64,000 nucleotides of DNA from Candidatus Latescibacterota bacterium (GCA_965243025.1 CBDETY010000003.1:3488001-3552000), one strand, 5' to 3'; numbered from the stretch's first letter, positions 13,992 through 26,337 are shown. Program-made: numbers and translations. The notes: generated by a model from the letters alone, not told the origin.

Positions 13992-14030
13992 AAAAAAGCC
14001 CGGCGATCAAAAAAAAGACCGCCGGGCTTT
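13992..14030 (-). terminator. Intrinsic terminator closing the exbB/exbD/DUF4159 operon (probably bidirectional)
   Basis: AAAGCCCGGCG...CGCCGGGCTTT inverted repeat, followed on the minus strand by a T6 run. It lies about 20 bp past the stop at 14052. Confidence 0.8.
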
Positions 14031-14051
14031 CTATTCAGCCTGAGCTATTCC

Positions 14052-15383
14052 CTACTGGGTGTACTGAGTTACATTGGCGATGCCGCCAGGTTGGGTCAGC
14101 GCGTAAACTATCAGATTGACCCCGAACTGCAGGCCGCGCTCTCTCGCATCGGCGTTGGGGTCCCCCCAATACCAACTGATGTTCAGGTCACTGAAAACCA
14201 CCGCGACCCGACCTCGAAGTTCAAGCATTTCAAGGTCGAATACGTTTCCCCCTGGAGCCCCACCCATCGGGGGACCGTCCTCAAAATCGAAAAAGCTGTA
14301 GTAGAGATCATGGTCCTTCGGAATTTTCTGCCATTTGCTGCCATCGCTTCCGAGTACCACGGGGTCCGACATCAGCGCCTTGAATTGCCGGTCGAAAAGA
14401 GTCCCCTGAACGCCGGCATTTTTATTGTCAAGACCGGTTTCCGGATCGGCCTGACGGATCTCTTCTGCAAAAAGAAAACCGCCATTCTTCAGGTACTCAC
14501 CGAGGTTTTCCTTCTCCGTGTTGGTAAATTGAAATACCGCATTGTTACCGGTCAGATAGATAAATGGCGCTTTCATCACGGTGGGATCACTGAGCCGTAA
14601 AGTAGTACCTTCGATACGTGCATTCACACGCGAGTGGTCGCGTATATAACGCATCAATTCCTCTACGGCGGTCGGAAAGCGATCAACACTTTTGTCGGCC
14701 AGATCGTAGTCGACCACCGTCATGTTGAAAAAGCCTTTGATGTTTCGCTTGTTGTCCGGATCCTGAATGAGGATCGCTTGGAAACGACCAAAGTCGAGAT
14801 CTCCGACGTTCAGCAGTTCCTGCTTCAGGCTCATGGCTTCCTGTACTGGTGCTGCAGTTTCGGTCAACTCGATCATTTCGACCTGGTCGAAGGCGAGTTC
14901 CTCTGCTTTTGCTCCACTGAAAGCCCCCAGAACCTGAGTGCCGGGCAAAACCGCGCCAAGGAGATCGCTTCCCACTGAGCTGACATCGACGATTGCGGAA
15001 ATATCTTCAGGTGCTTGCATTGCCTGGGAGAGCAACATCTCCATCTGGACTTCAGATATTTCCGGCTGTTTCGCGAGATCGAAGTTTTTCTGCAAAATGG
15101 GAGGGGGAGCCTGGAAGTAGATCAACTTTTCTTCCTCTTCTACCACCGTAAGCTGCATGTAGTAGGCGACTCCCCAAGCTCCGGCGTGGACAATCACGGA
15201 TAGAATCAGGGCGGCATTCAGGCCCAGGCGGCGTCCCGTCGTAGCTTTCCATAGCGCCATCAGGAGTACTGCAAGGGCGGCCGCGCCCACGGCGAACGCG
15301 AACCATTTCGAGATGATGAGCAGCAGGTGAATCAGTACTGCTACCCCGAAAATCGCGTATAGCTGTTTTTTTCGTTCGTCCAA
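14052..15383 (-). CDS. DUF4159-domain protein with N-terminal TM helices (TonB/TolA-like SxxxH) and an acidic linker
   Basis: The C-terminal part has PFIYLTG..EKENLGEYLKNGGFLFAE..HDLYYSFFDF..GRVAVVFS..QFGVNLIVYALT, the DUF4159 pattern. The N-terminal TMs include LILSVIVHAGAW, followed by EEEEK..APPPIL. Confidence 0.8.
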   Translation of the reverse strand: MDERKKQLYAIFGVAVLIHLLLIISKWFAFAVGAAALAVLLMALWKATTGRRLGLNAALILSVIVHAGAWGVAYYMQLTVVEEEEKLIYFQAPPPILQKNFDLAKQPEISEVQMEMLLSQAMQAPEDISAIVDVSSVGSDLLGAVLPGTQVLGAFSGAKAEELAFDQVEMIELTETAAPVQEAMSLKQELLNVGDLDFGRFQAILIQDPDNKRNIKGFFNMTVVDYDLADKSVDRFPTAVEELMRYIRDHSRVNARIEGTTLRLSDPTVMKAPFIYLTGNNAVFQFTNTEKENLGEYLKNGGFLFAEEIRQADPETGLDNKNAGVQGTLFDRQFKALMSDPVVLGSDGSKWQKIPKDHDLYYSFFDFEDGPPMGGAPGGNVFDLEMLELRGRVAVVFSDLNISWYWGDPNADARERGLQFGVNLIVYALTQPGGIANVTQYTQ

Positions 15384-15436
15384 AGTAATTCAGTCCTCAG
15401 CTCGGTGTTTGGCTCCGGTTTGCTCTACTCAGACGA

Positions 15437-15856
15437 CTATTTCCCGCGTCCTCTCTGCGGCTCCGTCGCAATCACTTGATCGACAATGCCTACCTGTCTG
15501 GCAATATCCATGATCTGAACGATCTGGCCGTGGGTAGCCCGTTCGTCACCTTGGATAATGATCAAGGTGGTGTTATCCAGCAGAGTCCTCTTGGCCTGCA
15601 GTTCCTCTTTGAGATTGGCAAATGTAACGCTCTTGTGGTTGAGCTTCATATTGCCATCCTGATCGACTACAATGAAGAGGTTTTCCTTCTCGGGAGCCTG
15701 AGACTCCTCTGCCTCCGGCAACTTGATGTCCAGACCAGGGGTGATTGCGAACACCGCCGTTACCATGAAGAAGATGAGAAGCTGGAACACCACATCGATC
15801 ATCGGTGTGAGGTCGGGCTTCTCGTCCTGACTTCCACGCTTTTGGACGGCTGCCAT
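15437..15856 (-). CDS. exbD: Biopolymer transporter ExbD/TolR
   Basis: DLTPMIDVVFQLLIFFMV with the essential TM Asp, plus IKLPEA and IQGDERATHGQIVQIMD. Confidence 0.92.
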   Translation of the reverse strand: MAAVQKRGSQDEKPDLTPMIDVVFQLLIFFMVTAVFAITPGLDIKLPEAEESQAPEKENLFIVVDQDGNMKLNHKSVTFANLKEELQAKRTLLDNTTLIIIQGDERATHGQIVQIMDIARQVGIVDQVIATEPQRGRGK

Positions 15857-15902
15857 CTTTCCTTGTCCCTCCCTACCTGATTATGAATGCAAGAATGCCC
15901 GC

Positions 15903-16556
15903 TCAGGCAGCTTGCGAGGACTGCCAACGACGAAGCAACGCGTCGACGAAGCCGTGTCCGTAAGCTTCGAACTGGACGTACCTGCTGTCGGCACGAGTGC
16001 TGAAGTAGGTGTAAATGGCGATCGAGGGCACGGCAATTACCAAGCCGGTAACCGTGGTGATCAGCGCTTCTGATATACCCGCTGCAACGATGGTCGGCTC
16101 ACCGAGACCCTTTTCCGCAATTCCCTCAAATGCCCGGATCATTCCGTTCACCGTTCCAAGCAATCCCAGCAGCACCACGGAGTTTGCAACGAACTGAATA
16201 ACCGACAAGTAGCGCTCCAGATAGCCAAGGGCGGCGCGCTCGACGGTACCGTTCATTTCCGCTCGCATTTCTTCCATTGTGCGCTGTTCTCTCGAAAGGT
16301 GCTCGAAGCGCTCGATACCTTCCAGGAAAACCTCACCTTCCAGCTTGCCCACCTCGCCGCAGTGCTCCCGCAACTGATCGAAACTAGTCCCCGAATCAAT
16401 TCGGGTATTCATGTCGTTGGTTGCCTCAGCCAGCTCTTCTTCGCTACGCATCCGCGAATACGTCCAAATCCTTTCAAGGAAGAACCCCACAGCCATAATC
16501 GACCAAAGGCCCAGCGGATACATGAAAGGTCCACCATCGCGAAAGAAATCTAACAT
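15903..16556 (-). CDS. exbB: MotA/TolQ/ExbB proton channel protein
   Basis: GGPFMYPL, LLGLLGTVNGMIRAF and GISEALITTVTGLVIAVP. It is adjacent to exbD. Confidence 0.92.
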   Translation of the reverse strand: MLDFFRDGGPFMYPLGLWSIMAVGFFLERIWTYSRMRSEEELAEATNDMNTRIDSGTSFDQLREHCGEVGKLEGEVFLEGIERFEHLSREQRTMEEMRAEMNGTVERAALGYLERYLSVIQFVANSVVLLGLLGTVNGMIRAFEGIAEKGLGEPTIVAAGISEALITTVTGLVIAVPSIAIYTYFSTRADSRYVQFEAYGHGFVDALLRRWQSSQAA

Positions 16557-16595
16557 GTGCTACAATCCTCCCTGTTAGAGCTGCAGGCTGGAAAG

Positions 16596-19500
16596 CTATA
16601 TGACGCGAGCTTCTTCCAGAGCTTGCAGCTGCTGCTTTGAAAAATCAACTTGAGGTGAGAATCTCGCCGCTTCGCTATACTTTTCCACCACTGTTTTGAA
16701 AACGTCCGCTGCCTTTCGATAGTCTTCCTGGGCCATGTAAGCGGCACCGATGTTGACGGCCGCGTTCACGGCTTGATCGCTTTCCGGATACTTATCCAGA
16801 ACCTGCTGGAAAATCTGGATTGCCTCAACATACTGTTCCTTGTCGAACAGCTTCTCCCCTTCCGCGTAGACGTTGTAAGCGTCGATCTCCGAGAGGTGAC
16901 CGAGAAGGACTGTTGCTTTTCGACGCAACTTCTTGTCTTCGTCCTTCTTCAGACGGTCATCGGGATAAATCTCCAGAAACCTCTGGTAACTCTCGGTCGC
17001 TTTATCGTAGACTTTCTCACTGTAGTAGAAATCGCCGAGCGTGAACTGACTTTTTGGACCGTAGTAACCGTCGGGATGTTTGTCCACGATCCGTTCGAAT
17101 ATCGGCAAGGCCTCTTCCTTTCGGCCCAAATGAATCAGAGCCCACGCCTTGTTGTAGAGGGCGTCATCCACGTATTCCGATCTCGAATACCGACTCAGGA
17201 CGCGGTCGTATTTCCCCATCGCTTCTGAAAAGATCTTGTTCTTTTCCTCCCTCATCAGACCTTGGGCCAGGTTGAAAACCGCTTCTCCTGACCGGAACAG
17301 AGCTTCCGGGGCAAAGCGGGACGTTGGATAGCTCTTGGCCAGCTGATCGAATGCAGTGCTCGCTTCACGCCATTTCCCCATGCGGTAACTCGCCCAGGCA
17401 TCGTAGTAGTGAGCGTATACCGCTTTCTCATCGTCCGGATAAGTCTGGTGGTATTTCCGGAAGGCTTCCACCATCAAAGGAAGGTACTGGACGTTGCCCC
17501 CTCCTGACAGTGAGTTATAGGCCACACCAATCTGGAACTGAGCATTCCTGGCCCAGCCAATTTGAGGATAATTGTCGATGATGGTTTGGTATGTGGCGAT
17601 CGCCTGCTCGAGGTTTCCCGAGCGGAAAAAGCTGTTTGCCTGCACGAACAGCGCATTTGAAATGCTTTCGACATCGACGGCAAGATCGATGAGCTGTTGT
17701 GATGCCTGGATGCTACGATCGTATTGCTCCAATCTGAAATACGCGCTTGCCAGACGGATCAGCACACGCACCTTGTCTTCTTCGGATTGCAGCTTCTCCA
17801 GCATGTTTTCATAGGTGCGTATCGCATCTTGCGGATCTTGTTTCTCAGCCATCGAAATCAGCTGCAGTTGAGCATTGCGCGCCAGCGTCTCATCTCCTGA
17901 ATCGATGACCTTGTTCAGCAGTTCAGTGGCTTCGTCATCCTTGCCTTGAGCAGACAACGAGAGCGCCATGGAGAACTCCACCTTCAGAACCATTGTTTCC
18001 GGAAGGTCGGATTCAAGAAGCCACATGTAGTCCGCGACTGCGTTGGTGTATCGATTGGCGTAATGATAGGCAAGGCCGCGGCCATAATGTGCATCCCGTA
18101 CGACCCCGGCTTCCGGGTATTCCTCGATTACCTTCGTGTACCTTGAAATGGCGTCGACGTAGTTTTTGTTGTTCAGGTCCAACTGGGCGATCTGGTAGTG
18201 AGCGGTGGCTTCGAGATCGCGATCTCCGCTAACTCCCGCCAACAACTCGCTCAGAAGTTCTTTGCCCTGCTCCGGCCGCCCTTCTCCGATATGGATATTT
18301 GCCGCTTCGACCAACGATGCAACGTATACTTCTCGCGCTTTCCGTCCCACCCGCGAAAAAGCTGCAATAGCTTCCTCAAGTCTCCCAGCTTGTTTATAGA
18401 GGATCCCCAAGCCATAATTCCCGTCTGCCGCATGTTTTGTGTCACCGTAGTTTTCAGCGATCGTCTCATAGGCTGAAATTGCTTCCTCAAAGCGCTGTTG
18501 CTCGGTGTTTACCCGCCCGATTCGCAACAGACATAGCGGTGCCTGATTGGATCTCGGAAAACTCTCGACGACCTCTGTATAAAGGCTCTGAGCCTCTTCA
18601 TAATCCCCCAGTTTTTCCGACGACCATCCTGCACTGTAGAGCGCCTGAGCGCGAAGCGAAGTTTCGCTGTCGGGGTAATTCTGCGTCACGAGCCGGTATT
18701 CGGTGCGAGCCTCCTCGTAACTCCCAGCGAAGTAACGCGCTTCTCCCTTCTGATACTGGGCGTTGGCTGGATAAGGGGTATCGCCATAAAGGGTGATCAC
18801 CTGGTTGTAAGTGTTCCAGGCATCGTCAAAGCGCTCCCATTCCATATAGTTATCGCCAAGGCGCATCTGCACTTTTGCCTTGTAGAACCGTTCCTCCGCT
18901 GTTTCCTGAGCGGAAATCAACTCTCTATAGGCTTCCTCGAATTCTCCCTGTTTTCGGTAGATTTCAGCAACCCGCAAGGATGACGTTTCAAACAACTGCC
19001 TGTAATTTTCAAAATCGACATTCTTGCCTTCGCGAAAAGACCCACGGAGCAATTCGTACATTCGGTCGTACAAATCACGCACCTCTCGATACGCTTCAAT
19101 CGCTTCGTTCGGCCGATCCATCTCGTCAAATGCCTGTGCTTTCAAGTATGTCGCTGAAGCAATTACAGGACTTAGCGGATAGCGGTCGAGTACAGCCTGA
19201 GCTTCGTCCACCGAGCGCTGGTACTCAGCTTTTTCATAGTAACAGGAAGCGATGCGAAACTGAGAGTCCGGGGCATACCGGTCCTCGGGATACCTCTCCA
19301 GCATGCTTGTCAGGGTAGTGATGGACTGATCATAGGACTCGAGGTTGAACTCGCTCCAACCGGCGTAGAACAGAGACTCTCCAGCCAATTTCGAGTCGGG
19401 AAACATCTCGACATAGCGCTTGTACTCATCTGCGGCCTTGTCGAATTCTTTCTGGAGGAAACGAGTTTCCGCAACACGGAATTGGACGAGCTGTCTGAAA

Positions 19501-19847
19501 TCTTCTGCTACTCCTGTCTGCTCGGTAACCTGGTGGAAGGCGTCAACAGCCTTTTCATGTGAGCCGCTTCGCATGTGAGCGTTACCGAGCTGATACCAGG
19601 CGGCTGCCAGTATCGGCAACTCCAGTTCATCTCCGAAACTTACAACTACACTGTCGGTTCGAACCGCCCGGCTGTTGAACTTGACGATCTTGCTGTACTC
19701 GATTATCGCGCCTTCGTACTCGCCGAGGGCATATAGTGATTGGCCCGCGTCGAATTTTGTTTTCAGGCTCTGAGGAACGGGTAGGAAGAGGCTAGTTCCC
19801 ACTCCGAGCCCCAAGACGATCAGTCCCAACCAAACCGTCATGACCAA
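16596..19847 (-). CDS. Very large tetratricopeptide-repeat protein with an N-terminal membrane anchor/signal
   Basis: 1083 aa. A hydrophobic N-terminus (VWLGLIVLGLGVGTSLFL) precedes many CpoB/BamD-like TPR units of the form YPxSxxAxxAx[YF]xxG. RBS AAGGAG upstream; the start may be ATG 19841. Confidence 0.9.
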   Translation of the reverse strand: MVMTVWLGLIVLGLGVGTSLFLPVPQSLKTKFDAGQSLYALGEYEGAIIEYSKIVKFNSRAVRTDSVVVSFGDELELPILAAAWYQLGNAHMRSGSHEKAVDAFHQVTEQTGVAEDFRQLVQFRVAETRFLQKEFDKAADEYKRYVEMFPDSKLAGESLFYAGWSEFNLESYDQSITTLTSMLERYPEDRYAPDSQFRIASCYYEKAEYQRSVDEAQAVLDRYPLSPVIASATYLKAQAFDEMDRPNEAIEAYREVRDLYDRMYELLRGSFREGKNVDFENYRQLFETSSLRVAEIYRKQGEFEEAYRELISAQETAEERFYKAKVQMRLGDNYMEWERFDDAWNTYNQVITLYGDTPYPANAQYQKGEARYFAGSYEEARTEYRLVTQNYPDSETSLRAQALYSAGWSSEKLGDYEEAQSLYTEVVESFPRSNQAPLCLLRIGRVNTEQQRFEEAISAYETIAENYGDTKHAADGNYGLGILYKQAGRLEEAIAAFSRVGRKAREVYVASLVEAANIHIGEGRPEQGKELLSELLAGVSGDRDLEATAHYQIAQLDLNNKNYVDAISRYTKVIEEYPEAGVVRDAHYGRGLAYHYANRYTNAVADYMWLLESDLPETMVLKVEFSMALSLSAQGKDDEATELLNKVIDSGDETLARNAQLQLISMAEKQDPQDAIRTYENMLEKLQSEEDKVRVLIRLASAYFRLEQYDRSIQASQQLIDLAVDVESISNALFVQANSFFRSGNLEQAIATYQTIIDNYPQIGWARNAQFQIGVAYNSLSGGGNVQYLPLMVEAFRKYHQTYPDDEKAVYAHYYDAWASYRMGKWREASTAFDQLAKSYPTSRFAPEALFRSGEAVFNLAQGLMREEKNKIFSEAMGKYDRVLSRYSRSEYVDDALYNKAWALIHLGRKEEALPIFERIVDKHPDGYYGPKSQFTLGDFYYSEKVYDKATESYQRFLEIYPDDRLKKDEDKKLRRKATVLLGHLSEIDAYNVYAEGEKLFDKEQYVEAIQIFQQVLDKYPESDQAVNAAVNIGAAYMAQEDYRKAADVFKTVVEKYSEAARFSPQVDFSKQQLQALEEARVI

Positions 19848-19893
19848 AACTCCTTGCCGGTTGTTCTACGCACAGAAGAAATGGGGTTAGGGG

Positions 19894-20829
19894 TTACAGC
19901 TTGTAAGAAATGGAGAAGCGGTGCGACCCATTGGTTTCGGTCAGGTCGAGCGGGATATGGTAGCCGTAGTCGAACAGCATTTTGTTCCACTGGTACCCGA
20001 GACCGGCATTGAGATCCCCACTGACATCCTCCTCAAGAACCCGGCTACCTCCGGCTCGCAACATCAGCCCTTCAACCAGGACGGTTTCGCCGCCGAGCAC
20101 CAGGCTCCTCTCAGTTTCCCCACCCAGATCGCGCATGACCCACTGGACCGAAACCATTGAGGTTTCCGCCACTGGGGCGGCTATCCCGACGTGCACATCC
20201 ATAGGCAACTTTCCGGCATCAGGATCGCCCGGAACGGATGTCTTTGCCACGTTCGGTTGGTTCAGGTTCTTCAACAGCACCCCCAGATTCGCCCCCCGCA
20301 ACGGCGACTTCCACAGCACGCCGATATCGACGCCCGGGGCTCCATTGCTGGTGTTCGACAGCGGATCAGCTCCCATAACCGGGTCGTCTGGAATGTCCCC
20401 GACGCTCCAGAACAGGTACTTCGCGGTCAAACCCAGGGACAAATTGCGGTTCAGTTGGTAAGAAAGGCCGAAGAATGCCCCGTTCTCACTCATCAGATCG
20501 GAGCCAATACGTTCATAGCCCAGACCCAGAGCCAGCTTTTCCCCCATAGGCTGGACAAAACTGGAGATGTGCTGCCCCAGATTGTCGCCGTCAATCCCGC
20601 CGAACAGCAGAGACACGTTGGTGTAGGCCAACTGACGGCTCTCGACCTGGGTCAGCCCCGCGGGGTTGGCGAATACCGCGTCGCCGTTGTCCGCTACCGC
20701 CGCAAAAGCGTTGCCCAGCGATGCCGAGCGTGCTCCCGCGCCGATATTCTGGATGTTCACAACTGCGTGCGCTGTGGTCGCCAAGGCCGTTATGGCGCTG
20801 GCGATTGCGAAAAAACGCCCTGCCTTCAT
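19894..20829 (-). CDS. PorV/PorQ/UPF0164 (FadL-like) outer-membrane beta-barrel
   Basis: Signal peptide, then GAGARSASLGNAFAAVADNGDAVFANPAGL. Further strands VDIGVLW, GVLLKNL, LRAG and FDYGY, ending in HRFSISYKL. Confidence 0.8.
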   Translation of the reverse strand: MKAGRFFAIASAITALATTAHAVVNIQNIGAGARSASLGNAFAAVADNGDAVFANPAGLTQVESRQLAYTNVSLLFGGIDGDNLGQHISSFVQPMGEKLALGLGYERIGSDLMSENGAFFGLSYQLNRNLSLGLTAKYLFWSVGDIPDDPVMGADPLSNTSNGAPGVDIGVLWKSPLRGANLGVLLKNLNQPNVAKTSVPGDPDAGKLPMDVHVGIAAPVAETSMVSVQWVMRDLGGETERSLVLGGETVLVEGLMLRAGGSRVLEEDVSGDLNAGLGYQWNKMLFDYGYHIPLDLTETNGSHRFSISYKL

Positions 20830-20859
20830 GAGCTCGATCCTCCTTGTGGTATTTCCCTG

Positions 20860-21639
20860 TTACTTGCTCGCAGTCTCGATTACAGGCTCGGCATCGCCGT
20901 ACCTGCGCCCGATGTCTCGTTCAAAACCGTAGGTGATATCGACCGCCTCGACCGGTTCATTCCGGTAGTCGAACCTCAGAACGCAATCGTGAACGATGAC
21001 ATTTATCTCGCGAACATCCGGGTGAAGTGCAGGAAAGATTACGAATCCTTCCTTCTCCTGTCCGCTGAAGATCTCTTCGTTCTTGAACATGGTGCGGTTC
21101 AGCAGATCCATCCGCTCCTGGTAACGGTTGTACTCATTACCGCGATACCCGATAGCATAGGCTCGGTAGTAGGTGTCCATCTGCTGTTTCCCGAGACTCC
21201 AGTACTCCCGGTTGTTCGATGCGACGAGCTGAACCCTTGCGGGATCAATCTTCACCTTCGGATAGGCGTAATTCTTGACGCTGAGGCGAAACACCGTAAA
21301 CCGGGTTCGCTCCTGCTCCCCTTCCCAGAACTTGGTATTCCCGTAGGTGTAGGGATTGGTGGACTTCGGTCCCGAATTCGAATGGGAAGCAAACTGCCGG
21401 TTGAGTTCCTCGTCGGTCATGGGGCGAAGCCTGACCTCGAGGCGATCCTGCGTGAAGGTGATACTGCCGTCGTCAGCGACACTCATCGCGCTCTGCTGGC
21501 TTTCGGCAGGTCGCAAGGGTGTGGCGTAGTGATAGTATCCACATGCCACCAAACCCACCGAAACGAGAGCAATTGCTGCGGAGTTAAGGAAGCGGGTTTT
21601 TTGCCGTGCTTTCGGTCCCAAATCCGGTCTCGCGAACAT
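20860..21639 (-). CDS. Hypothetical lipoprotein
   Basis: Lipobox GLVA-C, a beta-rich Ig-like body (FTVFRLSVKN, GQEKEGFVIF) and an upstream GGGAG RBS. Confidence 0.7.
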   Translation of the reverse strand: MFARPDLGPKARQKTRFLNSAAIALVSVGLVACGYYHYATPLRPAESQQSAMSVADDGSITFTQDRLEVRLRPMTDEELNRQFASHSNSGPKSTNPYTYGNTKFWEGEQERTRFTVFRLSVKNYAYPKVKIDPARVQLVASNNREYWSLGKQQMDTYYRAYAIGYRGNEYNRYQERMDLLNRTMFKNEEIFSGQEKEGFVIFPALHPDVREINVIVHDCVLRFDYRNEPVEAVDITYGFERDIGRRYGDAEPVIETASK

Positions 21640-21766
21640 GATCGAACGGACTCCCTAGTTGAGATCCTGTGCCTGCCCGGAGCCGATTTCCACGGTGCCC
21701 CGGGTTGTCCGAGATAAATACGAAAGAACCTTCAGCCGATGCAACTCCGCCGTAAGATAGTTCATT

Positions 21767-22687
21767 TCACGGGCGGATGGAAGCTTTTATTTGACCCCAC
21801 GACTTATCCACAATTGCGGTTTCTGCGGCCCCGCCGAGACCAACCAACTCAAGGTCGCTGAACCTCTCGGACAGCCGGAAGGCATTGTGCCCGCCACTCA
21901 GAGACCACTTGGCGTCGTAGAGTTCGGAGTGGGTGTCGAAATCGTTGAACTCCGCGTTGAATCCGAGCACCTCCCCTTCGCGTAAGTCGTGTTCCACACT
22001 GAGGAAAGAAGCTCCGACATCGATCCTGTCAAATGGGGTCAGCGCCAGTTCATAGGCGACGACCCCGGGGCTTGTCACAACCACCGCGGCCTTGGTGAAC
22101 TCCCCATCCGGTTCTGAATACCACCCCGCAGCCGAGAAATTGACGAAAAAATCGCCATCCGGGGGCGGGGGGCCGGACAGGATGAAGTGGTTTGCCTCAG
22201 TGCCGTTCAGACGCAACTGCTCCTCCTCGCTCAACTCCGAAAAATCCGCGAATTGACCGCCCGAATGATCGGCATCCAGGAAAATCTCCAGATCGTCGTC
22301 CTGGAATATCAGAGCCGGAGGGGTCCCCTCGGGACGATCAACCTGATGCACATCATCCACGACCACTGCACTTATATATAATTGATTAGAAGCGTCGTTC
22401 CAACCTACGCAGAGTGTGGTTCGGAAATCTGAGGGGTCCACCACAGCCCCGCTGACAAGATCTGTAAGCTGTTCTGTTGACACGCAAAAGTCGGAATCCA
22501 CAATTCCCCAATCCGACAGGTCGCCGTCGACCACAGGTATGAGATGGTCGGAAAAGTGAAATGCCCGCATGCTGACTCCGGGAGGTTGGTGAGCAATCGC
22601 CACCGAAACGGCTTCAGGTGTGCAGACCGCAACCGTAACCAAGGCAAGAAAACTCATCGCCGGCTTGCGGGTTTCAGCATCGACCAA
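21767..22687 (-). CDS. Secreted CBM9/DOMON-like sugar-binding-fold protein with a C-terminal SWGQIK tail
   Basis: Signal-like N-terminus, then PVVDGDLSDW, GWNDASNQLYISAVVVDD, DDLEIFLDAD, YELAL and LGFNAEFND. It ends ETAIVDKSWGQIKASIRP. Confidence 0.75.
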   Translation of the reverse strand: MVDAETRKPAMSFLALVTVAVCTPEAVSVAIAHQPPGVSMRAFHFSDHLIPVVDGDLSDWGIVDSDFCVSTEQLTDLVSGAVVDPSDFRTTLCVGWNDASNQLYISAVVVDDVHQVDRPEGTPPALIFQDDDLEIFLDADHSGGQFADFSELSEEEQLRLNGTEANHFILSGPPPPDGDFFVNFSAAGWYSEPDGEFTKAAVVVTSPGVVAYELALTPFDRIDVGASFLSVEHDLREGEVLGFNAEFNDFDTHSELYDAKWSLSGGHNAFRLSERFSDLELVGLGGAAETAIVDKSWGQIKASIRP

Positions 22688-22692
22688 GGACT

Positions 22693-23556
22693 CTATTCTT
22701 TCTCCTCCGTCCCGGAAACACCCTCATCCTGCATCTCGCCGCTCTCGTCGTGGAAGCGAATCAGCTTGATGTCGTGCAGTCCGATTCCGAAATCCCCGGT
22801 GCCGGACCTGCCGGAAAAGGCCGAGCCCACTCGCTTCTCGTAAATGCGGTTGGTTTCTCCGGCCAATCGCACGGTGCTGGCATCGACCGTGCCCTGGGTG
22901 GTGCGCCCGGTGCGGAATGTGACGGTCACGGTCCGGGATTCGGTTCCGGCTGCGGCCTTCGCGAAATCGAGCCGGCTTATCCTTGCCATCTCCTTTGAGC
23001 GCATTTTCAAACCCTGGAAATACTCGAACCGCCGCTTTCCGCGAAATCGGAGGTTGGAGACTTCGAAGCGTTCACCCGCCTCGTTGATGACCGTGGCCTT
23101 GAGTTCGACCTGAGGCCGGGCGGGGTCGGAGTGATGGAACAGTACGTCGCTGACCTCCGACATCAGGATCAGAAAAGGGCCGAGTTCCGTGACCCCACCA
23201 AAACGCTGCATCACGGAACCCCCGCCGAAACTGTCCTGATGAGGGGAGCTTCCGCTGCCGCCGGAAAAAACGGTGGCGTTGACCACTTCACCGGTTCGCA
23301 GGGTCACGGCAACCTGTTGCTCTTCGTCGTTCTTGTCGCCTTGCATTGTCAGCCGGTCGAGATCCTGCATTTTGAGGATGCGACGATGGTTGCCTACGTA
23401 GATCTCTATATCGTCGCCGCCCTGGTATGTGAGCCTGGAAACTTCGTGGCGGTTTCCGGCTCGATCCACGACGGTGGCTACGATGTCGGACTGTTGCGCT
23501 TCGACTGAACAAACAGCCGCCCCCGAGATTGCGATCAGTGCGGAAAGGATCTTCAT
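22693..23556 (-). CDS. Secreted hypothetical protein with two internal repeats
   Basis: Signal peptide VEA-Q. Repeat 1 is ATVVDRAGNRHEVSRLTYQG...VTLRTG...VSDVLFH; repeat 2 is ATVINEAGERFEVSNLRFRG...VTFRTG...IKLIRFH. Confidence 0.7.
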   Translation of the reverse strand: MKILSALIAISGAAVCSVEAQQSDIVATVVDRAGNRHEVSRLTYQGGDDIEIYVGNHRRILKMQDLDRLTMQGDKNDEEQQVAVTLRTGEVVNATVFSGGSGSSPHQDSFGGGSVMQRFGGVTELGPFLILMSEVSDVLFHHSDPARPQVELKATVINEAGERFEVSNLRFRGKRRFEYFQGLKMRSKEMARISRLDFAKAAAGTESRTVTVTFRTGRTTQGTVDASTVRLAGETNRIYEKRVGSAFSGRSGTGDFGIGLHDIKLIRFHDESGEMQDEGVSGTEEKE

Positions 23557-23621
23557 GGTTTATTCTCTGGCAAGTTGCGCTGATTCTGTTTCAGCATCCC
23601 CGTCATGACAATCGGTGCGGG

Positions 23622-24296
23622 CTACTCGATTCCGCCCTCCTCCTCGAGCTGCTGCGACTCGGTTTCGATGTTTATGTGAGTTATTCCGCCGTAGGTTACC
23701 TCTACCGGCCGGAACTCGTCGAGTCCGCTCGGTGAATTTTCGATACGCACCTTGTACGACCTTCCCGCCGGGACTATGAAATAACGAATCTCGGAGGAGG
23801 TCATTCCCTTGCCCAGAACAGTACGCATGTTGTAGTCCATGATGAGGAAGGGGATCTGTCGCCCCAAGTCCTCACCTCCGGTGAACCTGACAGAGAATCG
23901 CCCGAGGTTGACGGGGACATACTTCTCCTCTCCCAATCCGATTTCGACGTTCCGAATCTCCACATTGTCGTCGATGTCGGTATTGACGACGACCGTGTAG
24001 AGTCCCGGCGGAATATCGCACATCAACCGGAATTCCTGAGCACCCATCTCGTAATAAGCCGGGGAACTCGCCGAAAGACGGGGTGTATCGGAATACACCT
24101 CTTCATCGGTGTCCTGATCGATGACGTAGAAATTCAACTCGTTGATACCGCCAGCATCCAGAATAAGTCTACCCATCCCCTCCGGAATCGGTGCAGGACC
24201 ACCTCCCCCTCCGGAAGTAGTCGCACACCCGGTTGCGAGCAGGCAGCAGACGAGCAGTTGTAAAGCTATACGGTGAATTTCTCTTGATTTTGCCAC
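23622..24296 (-). CDS. Hypothetical lipoprotein (tandem beta-sandwich, carboxypeptidase-regulatory/PEGA-like)
   Basis: Lipobox LATG-C followed by a Gly/Pro tether. The motifs PPGLYTVVV and PAGRSYKVRI suggest two beta-sandwich units. GAAGGAG RBS upstream. Confidence 0.7.
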   Translation of the reverse strand: MAKSREIHRIALQLLVCCLLATGCATTSGGGGGPAPIPEGMGRLILDAGGINELNFYVIDQDTDEEVYSDTPRLSASSPAYYEMGAQEFRLMCDIPPGLYTVVVNTDIDDNVEIRNVEIGLGEEKYVPVNLGRFSVRFTGGEDLGRQIPFLIMDYNMRTVLGKGMTSSEIRYFIVPAGRSYKVRIENSPSGLDEFRPVEVTYGGITHINIETESQQLEEEGGIE

Positions 24297-24737
24297 GAGA
24301 CCTTGCTCCTTCCATCTGGCTTGAAATCCGGCAGACTACCTGAGAACTTGACGAGCCGATGTATCACTGTCAACGCTGGCCTGGTCCGACCGCTTCAGAA
24401 GGATCTTCCTGACGGCGAACATGCCCTCCCGTGGGGACCGTCGGCAGGGTTGGACGACAATGCGGGTCTTCAACGTCGTCGAAGAGAGGGACGATGCTGT
24501 TGTGGTCAGATTTCGACCTCGAGCCCACCAGTTGGAGAGTTGAGGGAATGATGGACCGTCTGTTCCGGGGGGCCATACCGAGTCCCCTGTTGGGTGTGTC
24601 TTGGCGCCGGTGTTGGAGCCTCACCCTCCTACCCGACCATGTACGGATACGAAGAGGGCTGTTTCCCGCGCAAAGCCCTCGGTGTCTGCTGCCGGAAACC
24701 CCGGATCACCCTGTCGAGCACCGTCCCACGCCTGTCT

Positions 24738-24775
24738 GAGGTTCTGCACCTATTTAGAGGTTCTGCACCTATTTA
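24738..24775. repeat. Perfect 19-bp tandem duplication (GAGGTTCTGCACCTATTTA x2)
   Basis: The copies are at 24738-24756 and 24757-24775. The second copy contains the stop codon of the 24773..25255 gene. Confidence 0.9.
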
Positions 24776-25255
24776 ATTGAATAGGTCTTTGACCTTCCCC
24801 CAAGTGGTGACGTCGACTTCTGTACCGATCGGTGGAGTTGGGGAGAGTCGGTGAATCGTCGCCTCGAAATCATCTCCCGAGACGGTTGTTGTTCCGCCGT
24901 TCTCCTTTACCAGAAGGAGGCTGCCGCGGTGCCCGGACCGAAACCAGTCTTCTGCCAACTCTGAAACGGACTGGTCTTGCTGCAGGAAATCATCGACGGA
25001 GAATATCTCGAAACCGAGCCGACCCAGCCCCGGAGAGCGGATATCTCCCGTATCCACTACCCCGAAAACCCGGATCTCCTCGATCTCGGCGGTCGCCCGT
25101 TCCAGATCCTGTGCCCTGCGTAACTGTTCATGTGAGTCGGGATCGAACAAGAGGAATAACTGGACGAATCCCGGATTTTGGGCTTCGGCGCCTGGGATGG
25201 CCAAGCCCAAGGCAAGGGCGACCATGACAGCTTTGTGAAAACAGGTGCGTCTCAT
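24773..25255 (-). CDS. Small secreted hypothetical protein with a C-terminal TTWGKVK tail
   Basis: Signal peptide AEA-Q and an alpha/beta body that may be a Cys-less thioredoxin-like fold. It ends PPIGTEVDVTTWGKVKDLFN. ATGA overlap with the upstream gene. Confidence 0.7.
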   Translation of the reverse strand: MRRTCFHKAVMVALALGLAIPGAEAQNPGFVQLFLLFDPDSHEQLRRAQDLERATAEIEEIRVFGVVDTGDIRSPGLGRLGFEIFSVDDFLQQDQSVSELAEDWFRSGHRGSLLLVKENGGTTTVSGDDFEATIHRLSPTPPIGTEVDVTTWGKVKDLFN

Positions 25256-26337
25256 TCAGCCCTGATCGTGAACGCCGGCTCGATTTCTCCCTGACCCTCC
25301 AGGATATTGACCTGTGACAGGTGGTCGTTGAGCACCTGTCCGACCTGGATCACCCCCACTCGCCTTGGCACGGCATATCCGAGGACCGCGTCGGTTTGTG
25401 GATCGCGAAGCTCGCGCCCCAGATCCCAGACCCCGAACTTGTCCCCGTTCCGGACCCCGTCCGCGGAGCCGACGTTAATATAAGCGCGGCCGGCATCGAT
25501 ATCTATGATTTTCGGCTCGGATACACTCAGCTCGGGGGCAGGGCGAACAACCGCTTCGACTCCCATGCCCAGTTGTTGCAGGCACTCGCCCACGGACTGC
25601 CCTACCAGGGTTTTGTGGAACTCCGGCGAACCCCATTCCGCTTCCCCCAGAAAGAAATACTCCCTGTCCATGGGAACATGTGCGGCCGGGTTGACGATAC
25701 CAGTGCGCTTGCTGTCGATCTGTCCCTCACATCGATACTCACCTGCAGGCTGGCCGTCGATGGCATTGTAGAAGAAGAGCTTTATCTCCGTAATTCCCTG
25801 ATAGCTCCTGTATCCACCCAGGGGAACAGTGGCGCGAAACCTTTTCATGCTGATGTCTCCGATTTCGCCGAGGACAACGACATCGGCTTCCAGCTGTCGT
25901 CCCAGATGTACGGCCTTGCCCGACTCGATTTTCCCGAGCCGCTCTTTTTTTCCGAGCCGCACGAACCCCGAATCCGGTGGAATGATTCGATAGGCATTGT
26001 AACGTCCCAGGGTATCGGCCAGTCCGCGGGCGAGCTGCCCGTAAATGTCCCAAGGCCCCTTGTATTTCGACAGATCGCGAAACGGTAGAATCAGGAGAAC
26101 CTTCTTGAGGGCATCTATGCTGTCTTTCTCAGTGACTGAGGATTTCACCGTCTCTTCGGCGGGTGCCGGCCGCGGGGAAGCGGCCGGTTCGGCCGTCGCT
26201 GATTCGGCGGCTTCCTGGTCTTGGGAAACGGTTCCACCGATCGATGCCAGATGAGAGCATCCCGTGCCGATGGCAATCAGCAAAGCCATGCCGGCAAAAG
26301 AGAGGGAACACCGCAGTTTCTGTTTCGAAATCACCAT
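25252..26337 (-). CDS. Lipoprotein with a CsgG/TolB-N-like alpha/beta domain and a FlgT C-terminal-like beta domain
   Basis: Lipobox GTG-C, then VLLILPFRD...AVHLGRQLEADVVVLGEI (CsgG/FlgT middle-domain pattern). The C-terminal part reads AYINVGSADGVRNGDKFGV..ELRDPQT..VLG. Confidence 0.7.
   Translation of the reverse strand: MVISKQKLRCSLSFAGMALLIAIGTGCSHLASIGGTVSQDQEAAESATAEPAASPRPAPAEETVKSSVTEKDSIDALKKVLLILPFRDLSKYKGPWDIYGQLARGLADTLGRYNAYRIIPPDSGFVRLGKKERLGKIESGKAVHLGRQLEADVVVLGEIGDISMKRFRATVPLGGYRSYQGITEIKLFFYNAIDGQPAGEYRCEGQIDSKRTGIVNPAAHVPMDREYFFLGEAEWGSPEFHKTLVGQSVGECLQQLGMGVEAVVRPAPELSVSEPKIIDIDAGRAYINVGSADGVRNGDKFGVWDLGRELRDPQTDAVLGYAVPRRVGVIQVGQVLNDHLSQVNILEGQGEIEPAFTIRAE

Follow-up and report, generated by a model that had tools for sequence, protein, structure and literature searches.

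Shared C-terminal tags on unrelated exported proteins have repeatedly led to sorting machines, among them sortases, exosortases, rhombosortases, myxosortases and the system for type IX secretion (T9SS). The beta-signal of outer-membrane proteins, which is the last barrel strand with its aromatic end, is read by BamA/BamD, and the C-terminal amphipathic helices of PBP5/6 serve as peripheral membrane anchors. Small signals of the CTERM type, which a membrane enzyme of the sortase type cleaves, are built from a motif, a transmembrane (TM) helix and a basic cluster (10.1101/2023.06.07.544157). For the C-terminal domains (CTDs) read by the T9SS, one report gives 43–55 aa as the shortest length and the last 22 residues of Hbp35 as enough for secretion of green fluorescent protein (GFP) (PMC11969387); according to another, specialised shuttles are often encoded next to their own cargo (PMC12618676). 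Here we analyse 64,000 nt from a Candidatus Latescibacterota bacterium (GCA_965243025.1, CBDETY010000003.1:3488001–3552000; this whole stretch is called the window), in which two secreted proteins with unrelated bodies end in the same short tail. We find that the tail is a portable, conserved short linear motif on exported proteins, which is ancient across a group of related phyla and has expanded to ∼100 proteins in this genome.

The first tail gene (21767..22687, minus strand) encodes an exported protein of 306 aa ending in ...GGAAETAIVDKSWGQIKASIRP. Its tail, TAIVDKSWGQIKASIRP, has 17 aa (21770..21820, minus strand), with the stop codon directly after it at 21767–21769. The second gene (24773..25255, minus strand), the start of which overlaps the 3′ end of an upstream 361-aa lipoprotein gene by 4 nt, encodes an exported protein of 160 aa ending in ...PPIGTEVDVTTWGKVKDLFN. 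Here the tail, TEVDVTTWGKVKDLFN, has 16 aa (24776..24823, minus strand), again directly before the stop (24773–24775). Both tails, as read from the translations, have the form [ST]-x-V-x3-[ST]-W-G-x-[IV]-K, are in register, and lie 5 (306-aa protein) and 4 (160-aa protein) residues from the stop. Both proteins carry Sec-type N-termini as judged by a signal-peptide heuristic, and the 64-kb window contains exactly these two tails. No BLASTP similarity was found between the two bodies (best E 0.38). Translation and comparison of the bodies thus confirm the original prediction that two unrelated secreted proteins of the window share the tail in register.

The body of the 306-aa protein matches Pfam CBM9_1 (PF06452) with an E-value of 7.5e-8 and 32.9 bits against a cut-off of 23.4, and in a Foldseek search its model matches the CBM9 structures 7nwn and 1i82 (E ∼1e-12, target TM-score 0.77–0.80). 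By profile and modelled fold it is a CBM9 beta-sandwich, for which sugar binding is only predicted. It is one of 68 paralogues in the genome as defined by BLAST body clusters. The 160-aa protein is a singleton in the same clustering. Pfam and NCBIfam scans assigned it to no family, and its ESM Atlas clusters are named only “hypothetical protein”. In a relative (locus L109) a 181-aa tail-bearing open reading frame (ORF), ending in ...NTWGKIKILFN, takes the same position after a homologue of the 361-aa lipoprotein; it gave no BLAST match to the 160-aa protein at E ≤ 1e-4. A side observation on the CBM9-like family is a conserved His directly after the predicted signal-peptide cleavage site (…AxA|H[VSQ]G/PP…), which the window protein (…VAIA|HQPPG) shares with dozens of paralogues and with family members in metagenome-assembled genomes (MAGs) of other families. 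The model of the 306-aa protein is similar, too, to the gamma subunits that bind haem in ethylbenzene dehydrogenase and nitrite oxidoreductase. On a CBM9/DOMON-like sandwich, a His at the N-terminus suggests that the ligand is a metal or haem and not simply a sugar.

We translated all six frames of the 6.8-Mb genome and counted the motif. There are 146 matches to WGx[IVLM]K, of which 104 end within 8 aa of a stop codon, with a peak at 3–5 residues between the K and the stop (85/146). Scrambled controls came to 9–19% near the stop: 7/46 for the reversed motif, 7/50 with GW swapped, 4/45 with K and I swapped, 17/89 with FG, and 50/259 with K changed to R. The W-A variant (SWARIKASL) was C-terminal in 39 of 81 further matches. 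A profile built from 94 tails and searched against ORFs of at least 100 aa gave 128 matches at a threshold of ≥10 bits, of which 116 end within 6 aa of the C-terminus; we estimate that tail carriers make up ∼2% of the genome's genes. The consensus reads [PDG]-[ST]-[AP]-V-[EQ]-x-x-[ST]-W-[GA]-x-[IVL]-K-(A), followed by 2–9 residues and the stop. Counted from W as position 0, this is [DGP] at −8, [TS] at −7, A at −6, V at −5, [EQ] at −4 and [ST] at −1, then [GA], R or any residue, [IVL], K and A after the W. Between the K and the free C-terminus there are 0–12 residues in this genome, mostly polar. As a query for homologues a 40-aa tail region retrieved 3 close relatives only, and is a poor query for so short a motif.

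Signal peptides were scored by a crude heuristic in which alternative starts were tried; as its background is 20–51%, the figures are comparative only. By this measure 78 of 96 WG-type carriers (≥100 aa) have a signal peptide, against 1139 of 4287 control ORFs, and almost all of the carriers' signals are of type I, few being lipoprotein signals. The shares among carriers from other lineages are 62/77 and 66/67. BLAST comparison of the 96 carriers without their tails gives 18 body clusters, with 68, 4, 4, 3, 2, 2 and 2 members plus 11 singletons. One of the 2-member clusters (…EGSGWGTLKDHD…) lacks the upstream T-A-V and is regarded as a chance match. Pfam recognises CBM9, PD40/DPPIV propeller, sCache_2, FGE-sulfatase, fasciclin, Temptin_C and lamin-tail (LTD) bodies in this genome. 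In other genomes, where 87 carriers form 36 body clusters, right-handed beta-helix/PMP repeats are found, and FGE-sulfatase again. The 94 tails are encoded by 86 distinct DNA strings, with Gly written as GGC (40), GGG (24), GGA (21) or GGT (9) and Ser alternating between AGC and TCC. As the codons vary synonymously, selection acts on the peptide, and a DNA-level repeat as the origin of the tail is ruled out. Many tail genes elsewhere in the genome have a low third-position G+C of 0.47–0.62, below the gene-call cut-off of 0.62.

The tail lies beyond the folded domains of its carriers. In the fasciclin carrier the Pfam profile reaches its end at residue 160 of 179, and in FGE-sulfatase carriers at 290 of 315 and, in an Eisenbacteria-titled MAG, at 306 of 326. 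An alignment of 17 CBM9-like carriers (A1) shows bodies 20–34% identical to the window protein and a linker of variable length before the tail, in which W, G, I, K and A of WG.IKA are invariant. An AlphaFold2 model based on A1 folds residues 34–283 well; residues 287–306 have a predicted local distance difference test score (pLDDT) below 50, with a short helix at 297–303. We modelled a second, unrelated carrier of 131 aa from a cultured Melioribacteraceae strain, using 63 sequences. Foldseek identifies its body as an FN3-like sandwich, and a C-terminal helix (119–129) has a block-mean pLDDT of 57–70, below most of the body. Based on the Pfam boundaries and the two models, the tail is outside the folds, and is predicted at low to moderate confidence to be unpacked in two unrelated carriers. 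It contains no membrane helix and no hydrophobic segment. The original prediction, which proposed a portable C-terminal tag on unrelated Sec substrates, had named beforehand three points on which it could fail, namely enrichment at C-termini, enrichment on signal-peptide proteins and independence of the folds; on all three the results above favour a tag.

Within the phylum we scanned 168 genomes with a strict DNA pattern for [ST]WGxIKA and used the same pattern read backwards as control. This genome has 71 matches (control 0) and two congeners have 30 and 58. At least one match is present in 73 of 75 genomes of its own family (f1), and families f5–f9 and f11–f13 are also positive. The strict pattern was not found in f3 (0/3), f4 (0/22), f10 (0/13) and f14 (0/5). 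Three of 31 genomes of f2 match, but the two matches with listed sequence (TGATGGGG…) begin with a stop codon, and we treat the f2 matches as chance. Five tail-rich genomes of other lineages (2.6–4.6 Mb) have 12, 45, 50, 37 and 50 matches with none for the control; lineages outside the phylum are named here and below as in the record titles.

A wider scan of 185,579 species genomes with a GC-rich form of the pattern, VExx[ST]WG[RS]IKA, found at least 78 loci. Among the matches listed, 81 of 83 lie 2–9 residues before a stop, the usual ending being PVExx[ST]WG[SR]IKA[LM][YF]R, and the titles are Eisenbacteria, Latescibacterota, Krumholzibacteriota, Gemmatimonadota, Melioribacteraceae and Fibrobacteraceae. 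The two exceptions among the 83 are a chance match in Pseudoalteromonas and one Eisenbacteria ORF that runs on for 323 aa. In the latter (L059, from an Eisenbacteria-titled MAG) the internal motif may reflect a lost stop or a gene fusion. An AT-rich scan reported 119 loci, of which 79 (L117–L195) were examined. The match is C-terminal in 74 of these 79, and the titles include Ignavibacteriota, Calditrichota, Neomarinimicrobiota and Delongbacteria, with the cultured strains Rosettibacter primus 4148-Me and Stygiobacter electus 09-Me among them. Recurrence of the tail in Latescibacterota-like genomes, which the original prediction had put forward, is therefore verified and extends across many related phyla. 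A Woesearchaeota-titled MAG (L138) contains a 281-aa ORF with a convincing tail (…PVTWGTIKAMYRTR); this archaeal bin may be a binning error.

Almost all of the AT-rich tail ORFs (69 of 72 in L117–L195) belong to one family of small (∼135 aa) FN3-like proteins with signal peptides. In 5 Ignavibacteriota/Calditrichota genomes checked the strict pattern occurs exactly once per genome, always on the FN3-like protein, which may be the ancestral carrier of the tail. This carrier ends in VKRTWGSIKA[LM]FR (e.g., L129, L140, L170), and its family is also seen at Neomarinimicrobiota- and Delongbacteria-titled loci. At Ignavibacteriota loci the gene stands between MatE and SpoIID/Maf genes. No orthologue of it was found as a small tail protein in the present genome. 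The FN3-like domain recurs here only in a protein of ∼1990 aa just past the window end (C3:3554974–3560943, minus strand), which consists of some 17–19 repeats of the Ignavibacteriota domain by hidden Markov model (E 8.6e-49).

As to function, the sequence features make it somewhat probable that the tail serves as a sorting or retention/attachment signal after Sec export. A variable linker joins it to the C-terminus of Sec-exported, mostly non-lipoprotein carriers of many folds. After export a putative conserved envelope component would bind the exposed tail, in which T-x-V-E is probably extended and W-G-x-I-K-A, next to it, probably forms a short amphipathic turn or helix. This binding would set the fate of the carrier, which would either be kept or attached at the cell envelope or surface, or be passed on to an outer-membrane route. 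We further propose, tentatively and at somewhat less than even likelihood, that the tail represents a new class of C-terminal sorting/attachment signal of ∼17 residues, T-x-V-E-x-x-[ST]-W-[GA]-x-I-K, with no membrane helix and no fold. Such a class would be ancient in the Fibrobacterota–Chlorobiota–Bacteroidota group and have a putative conserved envelope receptor. It may have begun on the single-copy FN3-like protein and later, in genomes titled Latescibacterota, Gemmatimonadota and Eisenbacteria, have spread to at most ∼2% of the proteome.

A tag of this kind, on dozens of proteins in poorly known phyla that by record title include sponge symbionts and lineages from sediment and soil, is invisible to current domain libraries, and its carriers are annotated by their body only or not at all. 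With a tail profile, a defined set of secreted or surface proteins could be picked out in these lineages, and phylogenetic profiling could be used to hunt for the reader. Cultured Melioribacteraceae, with one tagged protein each, make a bench test feasible.

Several observations weigh against a sorting or attachment signal. The tail on a single-copy FN3-like protein would fit the binding motif of one structural protein equally well, conservation past the K is poor outside the main family, and the signal-peptide heuristic is crude, with its 20–51% background. None of the reader candidates that we checked follows the distribution of the tail in the phylum's 168 genomes. SprA as a tail-specific reader is rejected, being present in 163 of 168 genomes including all tail-free families. 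A 1842-aa PorU-like protease is rejected as well, as it has orthologues in the tail-free families f2–f4 and is missing from many tail-bearing g14 genomes, and so is a PorV2-like barrel (NF052325), which is found in 157 of 168 genomes and in all families, never over the cut-off. In the five tail-rich genomes of other lineages there was no match to the 259-aa lipoprotein (lipo259; 20860..21639, minus strand) encoded directly after the CBM9-like tail gene of the window, and only paralogue-level matches to the PorV/PorP-like barrel that follows it. Neither are tail genes enriched near T9SS CTD genes: within 3, 5 and 10 kb we found 8, 14 and 22 of 94, with 8.5, 13.0 and 21.5 expected.

No recurrent peptidase or barrel was found beside the tail genes of 78 loci from other lineages. 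The recurrent neighbours at these loci are CTD cargo, TPR proteins, ABC/SBP proteins and housekeeping genes; in Ignavibacteriota they are MatE, SpoIID, Maf, an LPG_synthase_TM-like protein and YtxH.

Pfam and NCBIfam models gave no match on the tail, even when four isolated 40-aa tails were searched at E ≤ 10. Motif-string and keyword searches of main texts found no literature on the tail; the string matches to the motif were human SOD1 peptides and chance letter strings only. The tripartite CTERM signals (LPXTG, PEP-CTERM, GlyGly-CTERM, MYXO-CTERM) are similar in that a short C-terminal motif occurs on many unrelated exported proteins per genome, is expanded in particular lineages and is preceded by a linker of variable length. 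The tail, however, has no TM helix or hydrophobic segment and ends 2–9 residues after the K. It thus lacks the tripartite build, and the NCBIfam CTERM models, including WGxxGxxG-CTERM, gave no match on the tails. We know of no cognate enzyme. The beta-signal of outer-membrane proteins is likewise a short C-terminal motif of exported proteins that is read by a conserved envelope machine, but the carriers of the tail are soluble (CBM9, FN3, fasciclin, FGE-sulfatase) and few tails have an aromatic end.

A different explanation is that no machinery is involved, and that W-G-x-I-K-A-L-[YF]-R forms a short amphipathic helix which lies in the leaflet interface and tethers exported soluble proteins peripherally. 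Anchors of the PBP5/6 type likewise consist of a short amphipathic helix at the C-terminus of an exported soluble protein. In two unrelated carriers AlphaFold places a helix at W-G-x-I-K-A (297–303 and 119–129), and the way in which W, I and L/Y alternate with flanking K/R is amphipathic. An anchor would also account for our finding no co-occurring reader gene. Yet the predicted helix is only 7–11 residues long, much shorter than in PBP5/6-type anchors, with 3–4 hydrophobic side chains, and many tails in this genome continue with acidic or polar residues after the K (ASLEME, KKGG, KDERF). The T-A-V-E half is conserved although it lies outside the predicted helix and has no counterpart in such anchors. 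T, W, G and K are near-invariant across phyla, and membrane-targeting helices are usually less conserved than this. We consider a plain membrane anchor unlikely.

The tail could also be an ultra-minimal T9SS signal that stands in for the usual folded CTD and is read by the T9SS translocon or a shuttle of the PorV/PorP type. The genome encodes a full T9SS, with SprA, two near-identical copies of PorU plus a PorU-like paralogue, a true PorV adjoining PorU, ∼8 PorV/P-like barrels and 116 T9SS CTD matches. The tail and the CTDs have much in common. Both are C-terminal on Sec-exported proteins of mostly extracellular type, they share one group of phyla, and each is found on about a hundred proteins here (116 CTD matches and ∼116–128 tails). 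SprA was present in 10 of 10 tail-bearing genomes checked outside the phylum and in nearly all within it, and by record title the tails occur only in phyla of the T9SS-bearing group. The short functional CTDs and the Hbp35 fragment cited above (PMC11969387), and shuttles encoded beside their cargo (PMC12618676), would be in keeping with such a signal.

Against this stands the lack of any likeness in sequence or fold. T9SS CTDs are folded beta-sandwiches of ∼70–100 aa, whereas the tail has ∼17 aa and no predicted fold. Models of the type A CTD (TIGR04183/PF18962, with motifs B, D and E) gave no match on either window protein or on the four tails at E ≤ 10, and a comparison of the tail profile with 57 CTDs of this genome by hhalign gave a probability of 0.09%. 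The 16–17 aa of the window tails compare with a minimum of ∼43 aa for a type A CTD, and AlphaFold shows a short helix only and no sheet. For the type B CTD (CHU_C/TIGR04131), no CHU_C match was found on the tail proteins; neighbouring large proteins match CHU_C and FlgD_ig. The statement that the tail is not a T9SS CTD, made on its length, accordingly stands. The T9SS itself is present in relatives without the tail, SprA being as frequent in tail-free families (f2 31/31, f4 22/22, f14 5/5) as in tail-bearing ones. Presence of SprA would fit a link to the T9SS but does not discriminate within this group of phyla. Conserved operons that give the CBM9-like protein a tail and its neighbours full FlgD_ig/CHU_C domains suggest different fates for the two, and tail genes do not gather near CTD genes. 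Recognition by the T9SS is in our view improbable, more so than a membrane anchor.

In the window the tail genes lie in a gene cluster, and the original prediction held that this neighbouring machinery may read the tail. On the minus strand the order is lipo361, the 160-aa tail gene, lipo224, sec287, the CBM9-like tail gene, lipo259, the PorV-like barrel, a 1083-aa TPR protein, ExbB-like, ExbD-like and DUF4159; all coordinates that follow refer to this strand. lipo361 (25252..26337) is a 361-aa lipoprotein, lipo224 (23622..24296) a 224-aa lipoprotein and sec287 (22693..23556) an exported protein of 287 aa. The latter two match no Pfam family and have homologues in L099, L103, L106 and L109, those of lipo224 in the same operon in distant families. 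lipo259, a candidate partner of the tail, matches no Pfam family and belongs to a multi-copy family with 9 copies here, up to 16 matches in relatives and many invariant residues, including an NPYTYG block. The outer-membrane barrel (311 aa, 19894..20829) scores at the cut-off of PF11751 (PorP_SprF, 22.3 bits) and below those of NF033709 (PorV_fam, 72.8 vs 90) and TIGR03519 (35.7 vs 90.55). By profile matches the TPR protein (16596..19847) has CpoB/YbgF-, BamD- and PorW-like repeats, and homologues 43–64% identical to it take the same position in L099, L102, L103 and L109. The ExbB/TolQ-like gene (15903–16556; Pfam MotA_ExbB, 5.3e-25), the ExbD/TolR-like gene (15437–15856; Pfam ExbD, 2.5e-29) and the DUF4159 gene (14052–15383; Pfam DUF4159, 1.2e-27) form a trio (14052..16556) that also follows the TPR gene in L099.

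If the barrel, lipo259, the TPR protein and ExbB/ExbD were to read the tail, at least within the phylum, they should accompany it. At the level of families they do. Among the 168 genomes the barrel has clear orthologues (E < 1e-30) in f1, f5, f6, f7, f9 and f12, all tail-bearing, whereas the tail-free f2, f3, f4, f10 and f14 gave paralogue-level matches only. lipo259 is present in f1 (75/75), f5–f9 and f11–f13 and absent from f2 (0/31), f3 (0/3), f4 (0/22) and f14 (0/5); the exception is f10, with weak lipo259 homologues and no tails. Genes of the lipo259 family adjoin CBM9-like tail genes in L113, L116, L056, L012 and L109, directly after them in several families, and the full cluster with both tail genes recurs in L109. 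We regard this co-occurrence as suggestive, as the genomes are related and offer few independent contrasts and few evolutionary events. However, in L099, from the distant family f9, the core from lipo224 to DUF4159 is conserved but lacks both tail genes, and the same holds for most of it (lipo224, sec287, barrel, TPR) in f5 (L103); parts are conserved in f6 and f12. Only 1 of the 9 lipo259 paralogues here, the window copy, is near a tail gene. lipo259 tracks the CBM9-like family and not the tail itself, and no orthologues of the cluster were found in the five tail-rich genomes of other lineages. The TolQ/R-like genes, the TPR protein and the PD40 propeller in L099 point rather to a system of the Tol-Pal type. 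A predicted complex of the barrel and lipo259 with the C-terminal 45 residues of the CBM9-like protein scored 0.01 against a mark of 0.32 and carries no weight either way. We conclude that the window cluster is not the general reader of the tail; that it reads the tail at least within the phylum is very unlikely, and the claim for neighbouring machinery was not upheld.

Instead of placing proteins, the tail might mark them for processing or turnover, as a site for a periplasmic C-terminal protease or for quality control. It is exposed, C-terminal and, according to AlphaFold, unstructured, and proteases of the PDZ type read C-terminal peptides. Unlike PDZ ligands, though, the motif lies at a distance of 0–12 residues from the C-terminus, and it seems unlikely that a degradation tag would be kept on ∼2% of the proteome and, in Ignavibacteriota, on a conserved protein present in single copy. 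We rate this reading marginally lower still than recognition by the cluster. That the tail is no tag at all, being the homologous end of one expanded family or an integral strand of each fold, is barely credible: 68 of the 96 carriers here are indeed CBM9-like paralogues and 69 of 72 AT-rich tail ORFs one small family, but this genome has 17 other body clusters and further genomes have 36, their Pfam domains being unrelated, and a tail that begins past complete domain profiles and outside the sandwich in both AlphaFold models also contradicts it.

Considered by itself, the window cluster looks like an envelope system of the Tol-Pal/Exb type with a FadL/PorV-like barrel, tied to the CBM9-like family; such a cluster appears to be undescribed as far as we searched. 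In L099 a PD40 propeller lipoprotein precedes the cluster and a second barrel lies behind it. In small genomes lipo259 is found in operons with the CBM9-like tail protein and with discoidin-domain proteins that bear FlgD_ig/CHU_C T9SS domains. The “CsgG-like” label first given to lipo361 found no support in Pfam or among PDB sequences. Only a sub-threshold match to FlgT_C (E 0.0032) was obtained for this protein in Pfam, and a useful match among PDB sequences was not found. A homologue with 52% identity takes the same position in L109, where the tail-bearing small ORF follows it. We treat lipo361 as context and at most as a candidate member of a tag system.

Two further observations concern the surroundings. 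The two PorU genes of the genome, each encoding 1312 aa with near-identical ends, lie at C3:3585441–3589379 (minus strand) and C3:6051394–6055332 (plus strand), and only the first adjoins PorV; the pair looks like a recent duplication. The cluster itself (window ∼14000–26000) has a lower G+C content than its flanks, 52–57% compared with 63–68%.

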